A stretch of DNA of 17,831 nt, taken from the IMG/VR virus record IMGVR_UViG_2695420624_000004, one strand, 5' to 3'. Of this stretch, positions 2,397 to 16,454 are shown in pieces; position 1 is the stretch's first letter; every line of letters begins with the position of its first letter. Under the pieces are notes generated by a model that did not search any database, had not been told where the DNA came from, and saw only the letters and a program-made list of their open reading frames with translations. The DNA comes from a virus (lineage: Duplodnaviria; Heunggongvirae; Uroviricota; Caudoviricetes). Made by a program: the position numbers and the translations under genes.

Positions 2397-3518
2397 TTAG
2401 TCATCAACCGCGACTCCTGCACAATCATGGGCTATTGCCAGCAATTGTTTTTTAATTGCTTTAGCATCTACCGTCATATCTACTGTAGCAAAATGGATCT
2501 TATGTCCCTGAGTGACAACATACTCATTAAGCATATAGCCAACAGCTGGATGAAGTAGAAGACCAGCGGCATTGAGCGAAAGCGGATCCGTCTTGTTCTC
2601 CTGTGTTCTAAGGTAGGTATATAGCTGATAAATATAGCCATTACGTAGTGATTGCTCCCGATGCCAACCCTTTGTCAGAATCGAATTAAATTTGGTATCG
2701 ATAATAATACGCCGCTGGGCAGTCTTGTGTTCCAGAATAATGTCTGACTTCATTGTCGGGAAAATCTCTGCACTACCTGCACTTTGATCGCTCAACGCCC
2801 ATTTCAGCTCTTTCCCTGCAGAGACCTGCCAAGTTGTTTTGGCAAGGTGTACACGATATAAGCCAGCGATACCTTTTTCAAATAGTCTTCTCATCCAGTA
2901 AAGGTTATTTGAGGGCGCAGGTAAAAGATATTGGCCTTGATCTTCGGTCGGCATCAGCAGTTCAAAAGCTAATCGTGCGGCATCGACCATCGGTTTATCT
3001 GCGGCATCATGGCGTCCAAAACGCCACACTGAGGGTAATTCGCGGGGGGCAGGATATCCTCCATTTATCCCCTCACGGCGAAGTGATATTGCCATAAAAT
3101 GGCAATCTGCCGCCAAAGACGGTTTCACTATGATTGAGGCCAGACGTTCTAACGCACAGCGAACATAGCGATTTCGGGGGGTGTTGAGGGTTATGTCTTG
3201 AAAATGGCAGGCAACCTGTCCCCGTTCCAGCAGTTGATGACTGGCAGTATACAGTATGTCAATGCGCCCTCTCACCCGGTTCAGGGCCGCATGACAAGTT
3301 TGGTATCCCATATTTAAATTGCGACGTCGGCGCAGCGTAATCTCATGAAGGAGGATTGTCGCCACCAGGTCGGGGATTTCTGCTGGGTTATCTTCTACTG
3401 CGATCTGATTGCGCCCTAACTGGCGAAACAGATCTGAAGCGTACAGCATCAGCATCCAGATATTTCGCATGGGAATACGTGATGCTGTATGTTGCTCACT
3501 CCCGGTTATTGTCGTCAT
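2397..3518 (-). CDS. McrC-family nuclease subunit of a Type IV (modification-dependent) restriction system
   Basis: 373-aa ORF. N-terminal PMRNIWMLMLYA resembles the McrC N-terminus; the IIIDTKF...QSLRNGYIYQLYTYL block matches the McrC PD-(D/E)xK nuclease region. Start ATG overlaps the upstream stop as ATGA. Confidence 0.8.
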   Translation of the reverse strand: MTTITGSEQHTASRIPMRNIWMLMLYASDLFRQLGRNQIAVEDNPAEIPDLVATILLHEITLRRRRNLNMGYQTCHAALNRVRGRIDILYTASHQLLERGQVACHFQDITLNTPRNRYVRCALERLASIIVKPSLAADCHFMAISLRREGINGGYPAPRELPSVWRFGRHDAADKPMVDAARLAFELLMPTEDQGQYLLPAPSNNLYWMRRLFEKGIAGLYRVHLAKTTWQVSAGKELKWALSDQSAGSAEIFPTMKSDIILEHKTAQRRIIIDTKFNSILTKGWHREQSLRNGYIYQLYTYLRTQENKTDPLSLNAAGLLLHPAVGYMLNEYVVTQGHKIHFATVDMTVDAKAIKKQLLAIAHDCAGVAVDD

Positions 3519-5497
3519 TTTGCTAATAACACTTTTCTGGCTTCATCGACTTTATTTGGAGCATCGAACCAATATTCGGCGAGCAAAGGGCAGATCTCTG
3601 TATCAACGACTTGTTCATACCAAGCCTGGGCATCGTTGATTTTTTGGCCGATAGCTGGGGTGACATAGCTGTGACCGATACAAAACTGTGGTCCTAAGGT
3701 AACATCTTTTGCCAGCATATCGTTTAATACCGTCAGTCGAGATTTGATGAATGCTAACATGTCAAAATCAATTGCGTAATTATAATTTACCCAGTTTCTC
3801 CACGCGTCATTAAAAGCTGGCTTTAGATCGATAAACGCGAAACGACGGCGCAGCGCTAGGTCAAGTAGTGCGAGTGAGCGGTCTGCAATATTCATCGTAC
3901 CGATGATATATAGATTCTCAGGAATGTATATTTTTTCATCAGCATTTTTAGGATAGGAAAGAGATAATGCCTCAGTCGGCGTGCGTTTATCTGCTTCCAT
4001 CAACGTGAGTGTTTCACCGAAGATTTGCGCCGGATTGCCACGATTAATCTCTTCAATTATCACCACATATTTCGAGGTAGGATTATTGACTGCAGTTTTG
4101 ATTGCATTTACAAAAGGTCCATCAATTAGCGTCAATTGCCCTTCTTTACCTGGACGCCAGCCTCGAATAAAGTCTTCGTAAGAGAGGTTCGGGTGAAATT
4201 GCACCGCGCTAATACGCTCAGGTGCTTTTTCTCCCATCAAGCAGTACGCCAGACGTCGCGCTAACCAAGTTTTTCCAGTTCCGGGTGGTCCTTGTAATAT
4301 CAGGTTTTTCTTGTCGATCAGGCGCTGAAGTGTGAGTTGGATCTTAGCCTCTTCCAAGAAACAGCCATCCTGCACCAGATGACTGATGTCATAAGGAACG
4401 TGGGTGAGTTTTGGCAACAGCGCACTCTCTTCGACAGTTTCCTCAGTTATCGTCTGGGATTCGTTTTTCTCAAAATTCAGGTATTCATAATTTCCGGACT
4501 CGAGGGACTTTAACTCATCATCATTGCATAGTTTCTGTAGATAAAAGTAGATTGAGCTTGTAACAGTTTTGCTCTCAGGATGCTCTACCTTGAATACGTC
4601 CAAGTAGTTTTCTTCCAACTCCGAAGCAGTGAAATAAGGGCCATTTTTTTTCAGGCATAACGCCTTAATTTTATTCAGTAAAGAGGCTTTCCACGTTCTA
4701 TTTGCCACCTCATCTTTAGACTGGCTAAGATCTGTATTCCACGCTGATAAGGAAAGTTCTGGGAAAGAATGAACCGGATAGTTTGGTTGGGTAAAGACCT
4801 CGTTCAGCGCCCGCATAAGACTCAGGTAACTTTGTCCACTACAGCGACCTTTTGCCCCGTTTTTAATGATCTTAATGTTTAACACTGTCTGAATGTAATA
4901 CTGCGACTGGCTATCTAAAGTGGGGTAGAACCAAGGACGGGTCCAGTACAACCCCATGGTGAGATTCCAACCGACATTCATTACTGTAGAAGCGATGTCA
5001 TATGCGGCAGTGAAGTCTGCAGAGTTAGTATTCTGGTTATCCGCAAAGATCATTGCCTGTGAGAACATTTCCCACAAGCATTCAATGTCATTAGGGTCGC
5101 GTGACTTTTCATAACCAAAGAACCAAGATTTTTGGTTATTCAACAGAGGGATTCCGGCAAAGGAGTCAGGAATCGGTTCGTTCACGCCCAACAAATTCGC
5201 TAGCTTGGCAGCAATAATTTTGCGATTGCTGTCGGTCAAGTTACGATTGAACAAGCCCATAGTAGTAAACGGACAAATGTCTTTTAAGGGAAAGATCTCT
5301 CCCATAATAGATTTGTCCTGCAGATGGGACATTCCTTCCACACCCGAGGCAATTAGATGAATACCTTTGACTAATTCATCTCTACGATTTCGCCAAGTCA
5401 GTAACGCGTTGGCAAAAGCCTCATAAAAACTAGCCCAAGCAAACTTGCCATCATGTTCTGCTGTATCCACGGGAACTCCATTATACTTGTTGAGCAA
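3515..5497 (-). CDS. McrB-family AAA+ GTPase with an extended, uncharacterised N-terminal region of about 400 aa
   Basis: Walker A LILQGPPGTGKTW and a C-terminal IIGTMNIADRS...ALRRRFAF block typical of McrB. The annotated start is TTG; an in-frame GTG at 5470 with GGAG 5 nt upstream and a TATAAT just before it is a plausible alternative start. Confidence 0.85.
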   Translation of the reverse strand: MLNKYNGVPVDTAEHDGKFAWASFYEAFANALLTWRNRRDELVKGIHLIASGVEGMSHLQDKSIMGEIFPLKDICPFTTMGLFNRNLTDSNRKIIAAKLANLLGVNEPIPDSFAGIPLLNNQKSWFFGYEKSRDPNDIECLWEMFSQAMIFADNQNTNSADFTAAYDIASTVMNVGWNLTMGLYWTRPWFYPTLDSQSQYYIQTVLNIKIIKNGAKGRCSGQSYLSLMRALNEVFTQPNYPVHSFPELSLSAWNTDLSQSKDEVANRTWKASLLNKIKALCLKKNGPYFTASELEENYLDVFKVEHPESKTVTSSIYFYLQKLCNDDELKSLESGNYEYLNFEKNESQTITEETVEESALLPKLTHVPYDISHLVQDGCFLEEAKIQLTLQRLIDKKNLILQGPPGTGKTWLARRLAYCLMGEKAPERISAVQFHPNLSYEDFIRGWRPGKEGQLTLIDGPFVNAIKTAVNNPTSKYVVIIEEINRGNPAQIFGETLTLMEADKRTPTEALSLSYPKNADEKIYIPENLYIIGTMNIADRSLALLDLALRRRFAFIDLKPAFNDAWRNWVNYNYAIDFDMLAFIKSRLTVLNDMLAKDVTLGPQFCIGHSYVTPAIGQKINDAQAWYEQVVDTEICPLLAEYWFDAPNKVDEARKVLLAK

Positions 5498-5830: not shown

Positions 5831-6415
5831 TTATTCCATAACAGGGATTGCAGGCCACTCAATATCAGGTGCAGTTGATGTATCAACACGATTCAGCAAC
5901 ACCCGATACTTCTTCCAGGCTTCAAGCAACGAGGTTTCTTCCTCCGTTGCGATTTCCAGATCTGCAGCATCCTGAAGCGGGGCAATATGCTCACTGGCTA
6001 CCTGCATCAGGCTGTTTTTTGTTTCTTCCGCCTCCCGGATCCGGAACAGTTTTTCTGCTTCCGTATCCTTCACCCAGGCTGTGCCGTTCCACTTCTGAAA
6101 CTCCCCTTCCGGGGATAACCAGGTGATATTTTCCGGTAGAGGTCCGAGTTCAGAAATAAATAACGAGTCGCCGGAAGCCACGTCATAGACGGTTTTTCCC
6201 CGATGATCTTCAACGAGATGCCACGATGCCTCATCACTGTTGAAAACAGCCACGAAGCCTACCGGAATATCTGGCGGTGCAATATAGGTACTGTTTGCTG
6301 GCAGACCTGTATGAGGCGGAATATATGCGTCACCTTCACCAATAAATTCATTAGTTCCGGCCAGCAGATTATAAATTTTTATGGTCCGTGGTTGTTCACT
6401 CATTCTGAATGCCAT
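5831..6415 (-). CDS. tfa: Tail fibre assembly protein (lambda Tfa-like)
   Basis: 194-aa ORF ([24 protein letters not shown]...WPAIPVME), near-identical to lambda Tfa as I remember it. Start overlaps the stf stop by 1 nt (TAATG). Confidence 0.9.
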
Positions 6416-9264
6416 TATGCAAGCCTCACAATGTAGTTAAATGCGATGTTTTTGACGGTGTTTTCCGCGTTACCAGCAGCGTTAACGGTGATGGTGTGTC
6501 CATGTGAGCCAATCGCAACGGAGTGCGTATGAGCACCAATACCGACAGTATGTGCATGTGCGCCTGCGCTTGCAGCAGTGCCGGACAGCGAGTGGGTATG
6601 AGCACCATCTGATGATGTCTTCCCTGCATTACGAGTCTGGCCACTACCGCTTGTTGTGCTCATAATCCCCGCGCTTGGATTTGAAATCGCGGTATAACCA
6701 TTAGGGAAAATGCTCGTGTTCGTGCCACCAAATGCACCGGAACTCTTGTGTTGGTGCGCGCCGGCACTATTTGCGGTCCCGCTAATACTATGGGTATGCG
6801 CCCCGGTGTTATTCGTGGATTTGGTTCCGTAATCAAACGACGATGTGGTTTTCGTCCCCAAATCCGTACTGGATGCGCTGGCGCTGTGGGTGTGCGATTT
6901 AATGCCGTCCTGTTCCTGAGACAATACGGCCCGACCACTGGCAGGTTTGCCCTTAATCGTCCAGCCACGCATATCAGGGATCACGCCTGACGGATAAGCG
7001 GCTGCAAGTTTCGGGTAAGCAGATTTGTCAAAAGTCTGCCCCTGCATCAGGGCATAACCAGACGGAACGGTATCTGATGGCCACGGGATTGGTGCGCCGA
7101 CTGGGTAGCTTTCTGGTGGAAGATTTTTCGAGGTATAAACTTCTGCCCAGCCTTCCTCAAAACCATAACCGTCTCTTGAAGAACGGTAGAACAGACCACC
7201 ATTTCTGTAATGCGCCTTCATCTGCAGGGTCCGGCAACTTCCGACTCCGGTATAGAAGTTAACCAGAATATAGCTGTCGCCAGAGCGGGTGACATTGTAA
7301 GCGCCTGATTCGGCATTCCAGGGAACGCCACCATCCGCATCGGCATATGTATCCGTTGCCCTTCTGGCAAAAGCAGCCACATGCGCGGCGGTTAAAGTAA
7401 TATCTTTGGAACCATCAAATGGAACACCGGATATTTTTCTTGCAGTCTGGAGTTTTGTAGCAGTTGCAGCATTACCAGTGGTGTTCTGATTACCCGTAGT
7501 GTTTACACCTGGAAGGTTAATATTTGCAGAACCGTCGAAAACAACTCCACCGATAGATCTTGCCGTCTGCAATTTCGTGGCTGTACTTGCATTACCATTC
7601 AATGAACCAGTTAATCCACCTGTAACAGACAACGGACCTGAAACTGTTCCTCCGGTTGTTGGCAGTGCTCCAATATCTGATGGTGTAGGTTTCTGATGTG
7701 AGCTATACATCGTATAAACAACACCATAGGTAACGCTGGAAGGCTTACTCGCTGAATATGTTGGCGAGGTATAAACAGAAACTGACGCATTTGCAGTACA
7801 ATCCCAATGGATATTTACACTCGTCGCATAATTGCCAATCTCAACGTAAATATCATATGTATCGCCGGATGTGTTGATCCAGGCGAAATTCGTTAATCCG
7901 ACGGCTGTACGCTTCCACAAAGCCCCGGTAATTCCTTTGGGGTTTCCATTGCCTGCTCGTAGAACCAGTTCTGAAATGCCTGCCTGATGTGGGGAACCGA
8001 CGTTGTAACCAGCGCCACCAATCAATGCGATGTAAACGATGGAACTCGCTTGTGGCATGGTAACCGTAGCCAGTTTGAACCACCCAGCCCCGCCAGAGAA
8101 AGACATCGTTACTGAATTTAAAGTACCAATATCTTTCGGCGTTAATGTTATATCCGCAGTCAGTGCTTTTCCGTTAACTTTTCGGTTAGATGGCACCCTG
8201 CTATTCGCATTGTCATTGGCTGCTTTAACTGCTTTTGGCGTTGCGGCCAGCGATTCACTGGTGCTATCAACAGCACTGCTAAGTTTCACAACACCTTTAG
8301 TTGTAAGGCTTGCGTCTTCCATCGCAACTGCACCGGCAATCTCTTCAGCACGATCAGCAGCAGCTTCCGCACGGGTCGCAGCGGATTCAGCAGTAGTTTT
8401 GCTCTGAGATGCCGCCGTCGCACTGCCAGCTGCCTCTGTCGCCTTCGTGGATGCTGTCGTGGCGCTGCCTTTCGCTGCTGATGCCTGTCTGCTCGCCTCA
8501 TCTTTTGAAGCAGACGCAGATGATGCCGATGACGCCGCCGAACTGGCGGACGATGCAGCTGCCATTTTTGAGGATTCTGCACTGGTTTCCGAGGCTTTCG
8601 CGTTCGTTTCGGATGTCTTCGCTGCGGATGCAGACCTCGCTGCTGCGCTGGCCTGTTCAGCGGCTTCGCCAGCCTTCGTTGTGGCTGTTGAAGCAGACGA
8701 TGCGGCGCTTTCTGCCGATTTTCCGGCGGCGGTGGCACTGGCTGAGGCCTGCCCGGCACTTGTTGACGCGGCACTGGCAGACGACGCAGCCGCTGTTTTT
8801 GAGCCTGCCGCAGCCGAGGCGCTCTGTCCCGCTGCCGTTTCAGAAGACCTGGCGTTTGTCTCAGACGTCTTTGCCGCCTTCGCGGAATTGCCTGCCGCCG
8901 TTGCCGAGGAAGCGGCACTACTGGCGCTTGATGATGCGTTCGTTTCTGATGATTTCGCTGCCTCTTTTGAGGCCGCCGCATCCCGGGCTGAGGTGGCTGC
9001 TTCTGACGCCTTCGTGGTCGCGGCGGATGCAGAAGTGGCTGCTGATTGTTGTGACGCTGCCGCATTCGTTTCTGACGTTTTCGCCGCACCGGCACTGGTA
9101 GCTGCCGCGCTTTTTGAGGACTCTGCAGCAGCACTTTTTGCTGCTTCACGGGCCTTTGTCGATGCCGTTCCTGCGCTGGAAGACGCTGACTGAGCCGACG
9201 ACGCGGCCTGTCCGGCTGACGTGCTGGCGGCACGTGCTGAGCCTGCAGCATCGGTTATTACCAC
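6415..9264 (-). CDS. stf: Side tail fibre protein (lambda Stf-like), body and receptor-binding tip; N-terminal part is in another frame
   Basis: Long Ala/Ser-rich KTSETNA-type fibre repeats, a conserved GAPIPWPSD...[24 protein letters not shown] region and a His-rich HxH C-terminal tip ending [11 protein letters not shown]. Confidence 0.85.
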
Positions 9265-9577
9265 TTCCCGGATCGCTATACGCTATTCCGTTAAAGATAA
9301 TGGGCGGAATAATGATTTGACGGTCAAAGTTATGATCATCGCTGATGGTGACTGTAACCGTCCCGTTTGGTGTTTCCGTATTACCCCACGTACCAGCCTG
9401 TTTCGGGAATGATTTGGATACAGCTTTAACGAAGTCACCTCTGACCGGACTCCCCTGCCCGTCAACCAGGCTTATCAGCGTGGTGCCGGAAGATGGCAGC
9501 GTGATTTCACGGTCGAGCGTCAGCGTCCGGGTCTGGCTGTTTACCGCCAGCACGCGCCCGCCGGTGCGGATACCCAA
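9146..9577 (-). pseudogene. Upstream segment of the tail-fibre reading frame, out of frame with the stf body (frameshift or junction)
   Basis: This ORF overlaps the stf body ORF at 9146-9264 in a different frame. Its first ~100 codons look like real protein, then it degenerates into an out-of-frame read of the Ala/Ser repeats. Assignment as Stf N-terminus is tentative. Confidence 0.4.
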
Positions 9578-9795
9578 GCTGGAGTGGCGAACGTTTTACC
9601 CTTGCTGATGAGGTATTCACTGATTTCGCTGTACCACATGTGGCTGAGTGCATTCTGGGAAAGACTGCGTCTCTCGCGCCACGGTTTAAGCACCATGCGA
9701 AAGCATTTGCCGTCCTCCAGATAAGGCTGGATCTGCCGACCGATAGCGGTGAAGTTACCGCGATGCAATTTGATACCATCTTGTGGGAGGTTCAC
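9541..9795 (-). pseudogene. NinB/YbcN-family protein, N-terminal fragment truncated by a deletion joint
   Basis: 84-aa ORF with GTG start preceded by GGAGG. The block KPWRERRSLSQNALSHMW resembles the NinB RSLDQNRKLW region. The ORF ends prematurely in non-homologous sequence near 9541-9580. Confidence 0.45.
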
Positions 9796-9989
9796 GCTTC
9801 ACCTCCGCAGAGATCAAACGCTGGATGCAAAATATCGCAGGTGCATTTCTGCATCTGTGAATGGAGAAGAGAGGTTGGATTGTATGTGCGCATAAACGTC
9901 CCCGTTTAGCGCAGAAGTCACCGGAGTTGTTCAGGCCCCAATGGCATGATTATGGCTGGTTGATTATTGGAAATCAAATGTGCTGAAAA

Positions 9990-10499
9990 TTAGTCTGCCA
10001 AGTCTTCCTCAGTCGCAACTGGGTAATTCCAAATATCAAAAAAAGCTATAGCCTCCTGCCATTTGCTCCATAAGTTATCAAGTACTTGTGTAGGTTCCGT
10101 ACTTTTAAAAACAGAATCAGCCGCATCACCGTTATGAACTTCCTCGTACAGTTCCATTATTAGCAGATTAACAAAGTACTGTTTCAACATTAATGCCTGA
10201 TTACCTTCTTTCTGCTGGCTATCCTGCTTGATGATCTCCATCGCCCGTACTAGGCACCTGATGATATCCGCTGCATCATTAACGCTCCATTCAGATCCGC
10301 GCTTATCTTTAGCTGATGAATTGGCTCTCTCAGCGCAAGCCTTTAAAGACTCATAAAGGTAAACTCTATTTTGTAGCTGCAGCGCTTTTTTTGACGTGTA
10401 CCAACTTGCAAGCGCCGACCCCGCTGCGGCTAATGTGCCAAACGCAGAAATACCTGCTGCTATTGCACTTAAGTCGGCACTGTCAAAGTTCCACATCAT
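9990..10499 (-). CDS. Hypothetical 169-aa protein with one N-terminal hydrophobic helix (membrane-anchored); stand-alone moron
   Basis: ATGATG start preceded by AAGGTG at 5-nt spacing. Upstream AT-rich region has -35/-10-like elements. Residues 10-33 (LSAIAAGISAFGTLAAAGSALASW) are hydrophobic; the rest is charged and helical-looking. No family recognised. Confidence 0.6.
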   Translation of the reverse strand: MMWNFDSADLSAIAAGISAFGTLAAAGSALASWYTSKKALQLQNRVYLYESLKACAERANSSAKDKRGSEWSVNDAADIIRCLVRAMEIIKQDSQQKEGNQALMLKQYFVNLLIMELYEEVHNGDAADSVFKSTEPTQVLDNLWSKWQEAIAFFDIWNYPVATEEDLAD

Positions 10500-10675
10500 C
10501 GTTACACCTTATATAAATACCCCTCAGTAATATCCAATAAGGTATGTGCACAATCAATATAATTTTATCCGTATCGGCACATAGCGATTTGAACGCTACT
10601 GGTAATGGTATATTTTAGATTATATCGTCCAGTTTACAGCACCCGTATTTTATGAAATGGACTCGCATATTACCC

Positions 10676-10714
10676 AAAAAATGCCAGCACTTCCGTCATC
10701 GTAGAATGCTGGCA
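10676..10714 (-). terminator. Rho-independent terminator between orf99 and orf169
   Basis: Perfect 8-bp inverted repeat TGCCAGCA/TGCTGGCA with a 17-nt loop, followed on the minus strand by a T6 run. Confidence 0.5.
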
Positions 10715-10757
10715 GTATTTCTAACTAGTGACTTTATTGGAACAGATTCTGACGGAA

Positions 10758-11057
10758 TTATGGTAACACTCGACTCCACTTATCATCCAGCCACGGCTGG
10801 AATTTTACATGTGCCGTTTCTCTGGCGAGGATTGCTCGCGCTCTGTTGAGTATCTGGGGATATTCTTGCTCGATAGAAGTAAAGCGGCCGGCTTCGCGGT
10901 GCTCCGCAACCTGAAGTAGTGGAGTAACGTTCTGGCAGGCAGTTAACATCACATCACCTGCTCGCCATAACCAAGCACGTGCACAAAGTTTGTTATCAGT
11001 GAATTGTTTTGTGATTGGGTATTGTTGAACTGCTAGAACGAGAACGCCAGCATCCAT
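10758..11057 (-). CDS. Hypothetical 99-aa protein (nin-region cargo)
   Basis: ATG-initiated ORF with AGGGA upstream, co-directional with ybcK and the orf169 moron. No family recognised. Confidence 0.45.
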   Translation of the reverse strand: MDAGVLVLAVQQYPITKQFTDNKLCARAWLWRAGDVMLTACQNVTPLLQVAEHREAGRFTSIEQEYPQILNRARAILARETAHVKFQPWLDDKWSRVLP

Positions 11058-15238: not shown

Positions 15239-15393
15239 CGCATCCTCACGATAATATCCGGGTAGGCGCGATCACTTTCGTCTACTCCATTACAAAGCGA
15301 GGCTGGGTATTTCCCGGCCTTTCTGTTATCAGAAATCCACTGAAAGCACAGCGGCTGGCTGAGAAGATAAATAACAAACAGGAGGATATATGA
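15235..15393 (+). CDS. Small 52-aa ORF, lambda orf60a-like, coupled to exo
   Basis: [55 protein letters not shown] overlaps the exo stop (ATGA) and its stop overlaps the next ATG (ATATGA). Not in the ORF track because it is under 60 aa. Resemblance to lambda orf60a is from memory. Confidence 0.5.
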
Positions 15394-16454
15394 GTCAGGT
15401 TGGTAATCATTCATTCGAATTTCCGGCATCGCAAGGTGTACAGGGTGGTACTGTTACACTCTTCCTTACCATACCAGGAAGATCGCTGGCTCGTTTCCTC
15501 GCTTCAGATAATTACGGCCATACACTGGAACGCTCTCAGCGAGAAATTAATCCAAATCGAGTACGAAAATTTTTAAATTATCTCACTAACGCAGACTCAA
15601 GAAATGAGCCTTTTATCATTCCCCCTCTCGTAGGTAACTGTGATTCGAATATAGAATTTGTACCGTTTGGCAACACAAATGTTGGTATAGCCAGAATTCC
15701 CCTCGACGCCGAAATAAAACTTTTTGATGGTCAACATCGTGCAGCTGGCATTGAGATATTTTGCCGAAGTTCCCCATCAACGCTCATGGTTCCCATGATG
15801 CTTACAATGAATCTGCCGCTAAAAACCCGGCAGCAGTTCTTTTCGGACATAAATAACAACGTTTCTAAGCCATCAGCGACCATCAATATGGCGTATAACG
15901 GCCGGGATGATATTGCTCAGGGAATGATATCCTTCCTGACCCAACATACTGTATTTGCCGATATAACCGATTTTGAACACAACGTAGTGCCATTAAAAAG
16001 TAATATGTGGGTGAGTTTCAAGGCACTCACTGATGCAACGTCAAAGTTCGCTAGGAACGGCAATCAACAACTTGAAATGGGATATATAGAATCTGTCTGG
16101 GAGGCATGGATTACACTAACTCAGATTGACTCAATCCGACATGGTGTACACCACGCTACGTACAAGCGCGATTATATTCAGTTCCATGGAGTAATGATTA
16201 ACGCTTTCGGTTTTGCGGTTCAACAGATGATGGTTAATCATTCCATCGCAGAAATAACTTCTATGATCGAAAAACTATGTGCAACTACCAGCTCTGCAGA
16301 AAGAGAGGATTTTTTTCTGATGGATAACTGGGCGGGGATCTGCACGAAAGCCAGCCAGGAAAAACTATCTGTTATTGCCAATGTGGCAGCGCAGAAAGCA
16401 GCAGCAAACAGACTGATACAAGCTTTTACCAAAGGAAGTCTGGAAACAACTTAA
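15390..16454 (+). CDS. DGQHR-domain (DndB-like, ParB/Srx-type) protein, 354 aa
   Basis: Literal motif FDGQHRAAGIE at about residues 113-123, in the position expected for DndB/DGQHR proteins. Translationally coupled to the upstream small ORF and followed by a terminator. Confidence 0.7.
   Translation: MSQVGNHSFEFPASQGVQGGTVTLFLTIPGRSLARFLASDNYGHTLERSQREINPNRVRKFLNYLTNADSRNEPFIIPPLVGNCDSNIEFVPFGNTNVGIARIPLDAEIKLFDGQHRAAGIEIFCRSSPSTLMVPMMLTMNLPLKTRQQFFSDINNNVSKPSATINMAYNGRDDIAQGMISFLTQHTVFADITDFEHNVVPLKSNMWVSFKALTDATSKFARNGNQQLEMGYIESVWEAWITLTQIDSIRHGVHHATYKRDYIQFHGVMINAFGFAVQQMMVNHSIAEITSMIEKLCATTSSAEREDFFLMDNWAGICTKASQEKLSVIANVAAQKAAANRLIQAFTKGSLETT

Follow-up and report, generated by a model that had tools for sequence, protein, structure and literature searches.

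The stretch of DNA considered here (the window; 17,831 nucleotides of IMG/VR virus record IMGVR_UViG_2695420624_000004) is an Escherichia coli chromosomal segment at the icd/e14 prophage site, where the prophage is a decayed mosaic. Its middle part carries the target of this analysis, a gene for a 169-amino-acid protein (WP_000990013.1; 9990-10499, minus strand), which, judging from comparisons of the surrounding loci, appears for the most part to be a moron, an autonomous accessory cassette of lambdoid prophages. The left part of the window contains, in order, ycgX, iraM, an McrBC-like pair, a tail-fibre assembly gene and a tail-fibre gene, followed in the middle by an 84-codon N-terminal fragment of ninB, the target gene, a 99-residue Rha/antirepressor remnant, ybcK (a serine recombinase), emrE, ren and P, and at the right end by a YqaJ-like exonuclease, a DndB/DGQHR-like gene and an IS3 transposase. 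A preliminary description of this DNA had located the gene in the nin region, which is borne out by its position between ren/P and the truncated ninB. It does not behave as a core nin gene, being found in only 2 of 50,697 phage records (PhiR26_1 and PhiR5_1) and having no match to a Nin family of Pfam. The block ren-emrE-ybcK-Rha remnant-target-ninB is intact in a DLP12/lambda-like prophage of E. coli 55989, so the window can be regarded as a truncated copy of this block joined to tail-fibre DNA; judging by 100% matches there, the block is also present in O104:H4 strains.

Gene call and conservation

The coding sequence begins with ATG and matches phrog_1779 over its entire length (residues 1-169 of 169, E 1.2e-102), the sole family match obtained for the protein. 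Intact full-length orthologues with 44-99% identity were detected in Escherichia, Scandinavium, Enterobacter, Phytobacter, Raoultella, Klebsiella, Citrobacter and Cronobacter, and the ratio of nonsynonymous to synonymous substitution rates (dN/dS) was 0.09-0.16 where dS was computable (dS was saturated in the other comparisons), which confirms the 169-residue gene originally proposed. The location of the target between two truncated genes within a heavily decayed prophage would suit a chance open reading frame (ORF) or a decaying pseudogene without function, but such an explanation is made vanishingly improbable by the intact orthologues extending from Escherichia to Cronobacter, Enterobacter and Raoultella, by the dN/dS of about 0.1 and by the conservation of promoter, ribosome-binding site and C-terminal motif. 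These conservation data effectively refute the chance-ORF reading and indicate that the ORF is a real gene under purifying selection.

The predicted ribosome-binding site was also recovered, as a Shine-Dalgarno sequence AAGGTG (10510-10505, minus strand) lying 5 nt from the first ATG and 8 nt from a second one. Since the first ATG is replaced by ATA in several alleles (L003 and L042), the conserved start is probably the second ATG at 10496, which would give a protein of 168 amino acids. Of 5426 complete E. coli genomes, 181 carry the gene, mostly with at least 99% identity (166 genomes), and its carriers include diverse commensal and pathogenic strains.

Promoter, terminators and the cargo slot

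A putative sigma-70 promoter, TTGATT-17 nt-GATATT, was identified upstream of the gene (10557-10529, minus strand), with an A/T-rich tract before the -35 hexamer and a conserved footprint. It matches the sigma-70 consensus at only 8 of 12 positions, and a consensus scan with a threshold of 9 of 12 reported no promoter in the 258-nt spacer (10500-10757). The pattern TTG-N20-GATATT occurs once in the window, compared with 0.29 occurrences expected by chance. Seven diverged upstream regions were aligned, the lineages in question having 50-80% protein identity and saturated synonymous sites; throughout this alignment the -35 TTG and the -10 GATATTA did not vary and the spacing stayed at 17 nt. In addition, the motif lies at a constant offset 5' of the gene in nearly all loci that carry it. 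Because the hexamers have remained invariant at a constant offset although dS is saturated, this weakly scoring element is probably a functional promoter, and the promoter-like elements noted in the preliminary description thus hold as a prediction. A perfect TATAAT at 10624-10619 was rejected as a promoter, as it lacks a -35 hexamer and is mutated to AATAAT in PhiR5_1. Some distant relatives (L010, L011 and L061/62) use TATAAT as the -10 hexamer instead.

In several relatives (L010, L011, L061 and L062, about 50 nt 5' of the gene, and also L052), a strong G+C-rich hairpin followed by a T-run overlaps or directly follows the -10 hexamer (z -3 to -5.3). Transcripts reading through from upstream would stop there, whereas those initiated at the promoter would miss the 5' arm of the hairpin, and this arrangement looks like a promoter embedded in a terminator. 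The inverted repeat around the -10 hexamer in the window folds no better than shuffled sequence (z -1.07). The hairpin at -10 may serve as an insulator terminator or as an operator.

Just 3' of the stop codon of the Rha remnant, a hairpin resembling an intrinsic terminator, TGCCAGCA...TGCTGGCA followed by T6, is present at 10714-10676 (minus strand), with a folding energy of -16.6 kcal/mol (z -2.67), and it is kept in PhiR26_1 and PhiR5_1. It had been missed by an automated terminator scan because its stem is bulged and its loop is long. The hairpin said to separate the gene from the one before it therefore exists and is predicted to insulate the cassette from incoming transcription.

Within DLP12/lambda-like prophages, the ren-ninB slot holds the gene as optional cargo. 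The right boundary of the cargo is formed by a 194-nt ninB leader that belongs to the phage backbone (9796-9989, minus strand) and is followed by the truncated ninB at 9541-9795. This leader was found in 48 phage records, only two of which (PhiR26_1 and PhiR5_1) also contain the target, and the leader matches start 9-12 nt past the stop codon of the target. These 194 nt were considered as a terminator of the target gene and rejected as such, being backbone sequence. In other phages the slot is filled differently: PhiR30_1 has an acyltransferase and a lipoprotein instead, phi80 carries other cargo, as does the DLP12 slot of K-12, and PhiR26_1 has PD-lambda-1 there in addition to the target. The PhiR phages are, we assume, those of Brenes & Laub 2025. 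The G+C content of the target gene (43.9%) is lower than that of P (54.3%) and ninB (54.9%).

On the other side, the upstream neighbour differs by lineage and may be Rha, DUF551, Ead/Ea22, a methyltransferase or another gene, which implies that the mobile unit consists of the promoter and the gene; an obligate pairing with Rha was rejected for the same reason. In the window, the Rha/antirepressor remnant (10758-11057, minus strand) retains 99 amino acids, corresponding to the P22AR C-terminal domain; it is full length in PhiR26_1 and PhiR5_1, and the gene is a pseudogene in E. coli 55989. Truncation has affected both neighbours, Rha and ninB, but not the target gene or its promoter, which are intact.

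Relatives of the gene differ in what lies downstream. A strong terminator (GGCCTCC-GGAG-GCC plus T5) separates gene and leader in L052-L057, and strong terminators directly 3' of the gene are found in the distant members L064, L067/68, L072 and L073. In a distant member from Cronobacter, the gene is located at the far end of the PL operon, before int, and another distant copy resides in a small integrative element beside a DRT reverse transcriptase and a SLATT gene. A gene for a theta-like (HolE/Hot-like) subunit of DNA polymerase III (Pol III) lies 65 nt downstream of the target relative in the lambdoid nin regions of L061-L063 (6567-6824), and in L064 (5756-6004) and L072 (2-160), in a small integrative element, it precedes the relative and overlaps it by 4 nt (ATGA). 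In every locus the gene has the orientation of the surrounding early genes, and no chromosomal non-prophage copies were seen among the loci examined, where the family occurs only in early regions of phages and satellites. No Rfam family was detected in or beside the cassette.

The preliminary description had called the gene a self-contained moron. Its status as optional cargo in a sharply bounded slot, its lower G+C content and its conserved predicted promoter agree with that claim; what fails is the downstream part, because the gene in the window lineage has no terminator of its own and the stop codon runs into the ninB leader, so that the unit here consists of promoter and gene only. Across the relatives, the arrangement of promoter, gene and terminators is what an insulated transcription unit would be expected to look like.

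The protein and its possible role

The protein has few recognizable relatives. An exhaustive profile search of 1.84 billion cluster representatives returned only 35, and phrog_1779 is without functional annotation, so membership in it is uninformative on mechanism. No Pfam or NCBIfam family was matched by the target, and only scattered sub-threshold Pfam matches were obtained among 30 relatives; PADLOC gave no match for the target, its best E value among the 30 relatives was 0.0018, and no PADLOC family was matched by more than two of the 30. A profile search of PDB sequences yielded no match, and neither a specific fold match nor an informative structural neighbour was found, solved defence and exclusion proteins included. 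These results from Pfam, NCBIfam, PADLOC and PDB, with nothing usable for either the target or the 30 relatives, agree with the initial impression that the protein belongs to no familiar family, and homology to a structural or housekeeping phage protein was also looked for and not found. The literature searched contained no mention of WP_000990013, and the protein is absent from the DefensePredictor supplements.

The only hydrophobic segment is a putative signal anchor at residues ~10-33 (10401-10472, minus strand), a weakly hydrophobic helix rich in Ala, Gly and Ser that is predicted to be oriented N-out/C-in. These three residues make up 68% of the segment (74% including Thr; family median 58%), and its 19-residue Kyte-Doolittle peak is a borderline 1.59 (1.5-2.5 in relatives). 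The N-terminal helix and membrane anchor proposed earlier are therefore present, with the caveat of this low hydropathy. The flanking charges are -1 on the N side and +3 on the C side (family means -0.1 and +2.1), and since basic residues follow the anchor and none precede it, the positive-inside rule would place the helical domain in the cytoplasm; the product is thus predicted to be a single-pass inner-membrane protein with a cytoplasmic helical domain.

An AlphaFold model built from an alignment of 30 sequences is all-helical (predicted local distance difference test score 84.5), with a long helix (residues 7-63) leading from the anchor into a compact helical bundle that ends near residue 155 and is followed by a short C-terminal tail. 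Residues conserved in the family are S32, Q43, L52, A56, N60, W71, A86, I90, F109, L113 and W147, i.e., mostly structural ones (L, A, I, F, W) plus S32, Q43 and N60. No recognizable catalytic motif was found among them in the wider-family alignment, and both this pattern and the model suggest a non-enzymatic domain. The acidic C-terminal tail ATEEDLAD (9993-10013, minus strand) is conserved in close and distant alignments: T163, E165, D166, L167 and D169 are invariant in close relatives (T-[DE]-E-D-L-x-D), and a D-L-x-D C-terminus is retained in most distant relatives, which suggests a short linear binding motif.

The anchor also raises the question of whether the helix itself is the active part, in a membrane-active toxin or addiction element whose small-residue helix would oligomerize and depolarize the membrane, thereby stabilizing the prophage or killing infected cells. 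The small-residue pattern SA-I-G/A-x-V-A-A-A-x-A-A-F-x-S resembles helix-packing motifs, and a single-gene unit with tight transcriptional insulation is in keeping with such an element. However, no antitoxin partner is conserved beside the gene, a well-folded and conserved soluble domain of ~130 residues is unexpected for a simple pore-forming peptide, and stable carriage at 99% identity or more in the 166 genomes also speaks against a toxin, which makes this explanation improbable.

Overall, superinfection exclusion or abortive infection, the functional guess of the preliminary description, is ranked first among the possible roles, although it is held only tentatively because nothing positive ties the family to defence. 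The cassette would be transcribed from its own sigma-70 promoter, shielded from the preceding gene by the upstream terminator, and its 168- or 169-residue product would be an inner-membrane protein with a short acidic N-terminus outside, the weak Ala/Gly/Ser-rich anchor, and a non-enzymatic helical bundle in the cytoplasm ending in the acidic ...EDL-x-D tail. The protein would be made in the lysogen and positioned at the inner face of the membrane, where helical domain and tail might bind a host or phage protein such that infection by a second phage is blocked or aborted. Membrane topology, lysogen expression and anti-phage role are what we infer here. The simplest reading of a cassette that is insulated, has a conserved promoter, travels as optional cargo and persists intact in a dead prophage is that its gene is expressed to benefit the lysogen, and a membrane-tethered, non-enzymatic cytoplasmic domain fits protein binding at the site of phage DNA entry or in membrane-associated phage processes.

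Morons of lambdoid phages such as HK97 and HK022 are promoter-gene-terminator units inserted between backbone genes, and the moron gp15 of HK97 encodes an inner-membrane superinfection-exclusion protein. Similarly, the target is an optional single-gene insert of lower G+C content between backbone genes and encodes a small, predicted inner-membrane protein with its own predicted promoter, and flanking terminators are present in its relatives; unlike the full unit, the copy in the window has none downstream. Exclusion activity is putative in the case of the target, which has no similarity to the Pfam families that cover proteins of the gp15 type; these are small and polytopic, whereas the target has one weak N-terminal helix and a predicted cytoplasmic bundle of ~130 residues.

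Defence genes are known to accumulate in prophage hotspots (Vassallo et al. 2022, PMC9519451). PD-lambda-1, as annotated in PhiR26_1, occupies the same variable slot as the target at a distance of ~1.6 kb, but it points opposite to the early operon, whereas the target points with it. No meaningful match to the PADLOC defence families exists for the target or the 30 relatives, and part of the cargo of the ren-ninB slot is not related to defence.

Several observations weigh against an exclusion or abortive-infection role. The protein shows no similarity to known exclusion, abortive-infection or defence families in Pfam and PADLOC, and its anchor is of borderline hydropathy. The ren-ninB slot also holds emrE, ybcK and an acyltransferase, cargo unlinked to defence, and the depositors of PhiR26_1 and PhiR5_1 labelled PD-lambda-1 and HipA and left the target as a 'hypothetical protein'. 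The downstream terminator is missing in the window lineage, and the gene is always oriented as the early operon, so lytic expression by N-antiterminated readthrough is also possible.

The last two points lead to a different role, that of an early lytic-cycle or host-takeover accessory protein which would affect a host process at the membrane, for example replication, perhaps in concert with phage Pol III theta, and would give no protection to the lysogen. The gene consistently runs in the direction of the early operon (PR or PL) and is surrounded by replication and recombination genes; in the window lineage no terminator lies between target and ninB, and target relatives are adjoined by a Pol III theta-like gene (PF06440) in three lineages and two arrangements. 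However, its own conserved promoter and the flanking terminators in many lineages suggest that the target is insulated from the early operon, no theta gene is present in the window or in at least nine other lineages examined, and the target is intact in a prophage remnant no longer able to grow lytically. Its absence from almost all sequenced lambdoid phages (all but the 2 records mentioned above) further implies that it is dispensable for lytic growth. A function in the lytic cycle is thus considered unlikely.

The features that favour expression in the lysogen would also suit a membrane factor for lysogenic conversion or host fitness that is unrelated to phage and alters envelope physiology or stress tolerance, like bor, lom or emrE. 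Besides the autonomous architecture of the transcription unit, the target shares a cargo block with emrE and ybcK in E. coli 55989, O104:H4 and the window, is kept in a decayed prophage, and is present in diverse commensal and pathogenic strains. On the other hand, the predicted location of the domain is cytoplasmic, the protein bears no signature of a transporter, an enzyme or a surface protein, and the family is restricted to phage and satellite early regions among the loci examined, which leaves host conversion rather doubtful.

A further variant concerns the mode of action of the anchor. Signal-arrest-release (SAR) domains, known from phage endolysins and pinholins, are transmembrane helices of low hydrophobicity that contain much Gly, Ala, Ser and Thr and are able to exit the bilayer; in SAR endolysins the helix is preceded by 2-3 basic residues and the catalytic domain is periplasmic (PMC9239132). 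The target anchor is similar in composition (68% Ala/Gly/Ser) and marginal hydropathy, but its N-flank is neutral or acidic and the basic residues come after the helix, so its orientation is predicted to be opposite to that of SAR endolysins; in addition, the target has no lytic domain and lies outside the lysis cassette. It is conceivable, though quite improbable, that the protein has a reverse-oriented SAR-like anchor and is parked at the inner membrane of the lysogen until a phage or a holin disturbs the membrane potential, whereupon it would be released and its bundle and DL-x-D tail would engage a target, possibly a replisome component, which is suggested by the recurrent Pol III theta neighbour. 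If true, the protein would by itself combine a sensor of membrane integrity with an effector, and no such mechanism has been described for prophage cargo.

Neighbouring features and significance

The ninB leader (9796-9989, minus strand) is conserved and highly structured, and it is also present in L004, L005, L010, L011, L052, L057 and L060, in phi80 (L070, ~2470-2666) and in PhiR30_1 (L071, 3494-3683). It contains an invariant palindrome, TTGATT-N6-AATCAA, followed by CCATAAT, within which a promoter-like TTGATT-17-CATAAT was flagged. One hairpin has a conserved 9-nt loop, CCUGAACAA, on a stem that differs in almost all lineages, and we take this hairpin to resemble boxB. A second hairpin has a covarying stem of ~10 bp and a GGGA tetraloop and is annotated as repeat IR4 in phi80, and a third one also lies within the leader. 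RNAalifold analysis of 11 leaders gave 30 base pairs, 14 of which show compensatory changes, and no Rfam family matched the leader. A 33-codon ORF inside the leader (9792-9893, minus strand), annotated as hypothetical in RefSeq, has a TGA stop codon that overlaps the GTG start of ninB, and its C-terminal half (M-x-x-x-T-x-D-[IF]-L-[HY]...) recurs in L004, L005 and phi80; it may encode a translationally coupled leader peptide. The leader is possibly of more interest than the target gene itself.

Beyond the leader, ninB (9541-9795, minus strand) is cut after ~84 codons and continues into tail-fibre-related sequence, annotated in RefSeq as a 'phage tail tip domain' pseudogene; the junction near 9540 corresponds to a deletion that joined the early-right region to tail genes of the decayed prophage. 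In the adjacent tail-fibre ORF (949 amino acids; 6415-9264, minus strand), the N-terminal part is a very long low-complexity region with a high content of Ala, Ser and Thr, and this explains several long spurious ORFs that appear in other reading frames and on the complementary strand. Within the tail-fibre assembly gene (5831-6415), a match to Rfam IS009 (RF02111; 214 bits) was detected at 5874-6072 on the minus strand.

The McrBC-like pair (2397-5497, minus strand) is located at the prophage end, adjoining the icd remnant, and comprises a 660-residue McrB-family AAA+ protein with a long N-terminal domain and an annotated McrC of 373 residues, whose genes overlap by 4 nt (3515-3518); in strain ML35 the McrB gene is interrupted by an IS3 element. 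Near the other end of the window, a stand-alone DndB/DGQHR-domain protein of 354 amino acids is encoded at 15390-16454 (plus strand), adjoining the IS3 transposase, with matches to TIGR03187 (E 1.5e-55), PADLOC DndB (E 4e-37) and phrog_7901; no other dnd genes are visible in the window.

Taken together, the target is an uncharacterised member of a well-known kind of element, the lambdoid moron; the preliminary description of it was accurate, and the function guessed there is reasonable but unsupported. Approximately 3% of complete E. coli genomes carry the gene, including enteroaggregative E. coli (EAEC) 55989 and the O104:H4 outbreak lineage, and it is intact even in dead prophages; no member of this small family has a known function. 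For practical purposes, it offers a delimited, clonable cassette of ~570 bp (10560-9990) with a predicted promoter, a start codon, a predicted topology and a testable C-terminal motif. If the product is not a defence protein, it would represent one more conserved hypothetical cargo gene. Should exclusion or abortive infection prove to be its function, the defence repertoire of prophages would gain a new single-gene family, and this would help to mark the ren-ninB junction as a defence hotspot of lambdoid phages.

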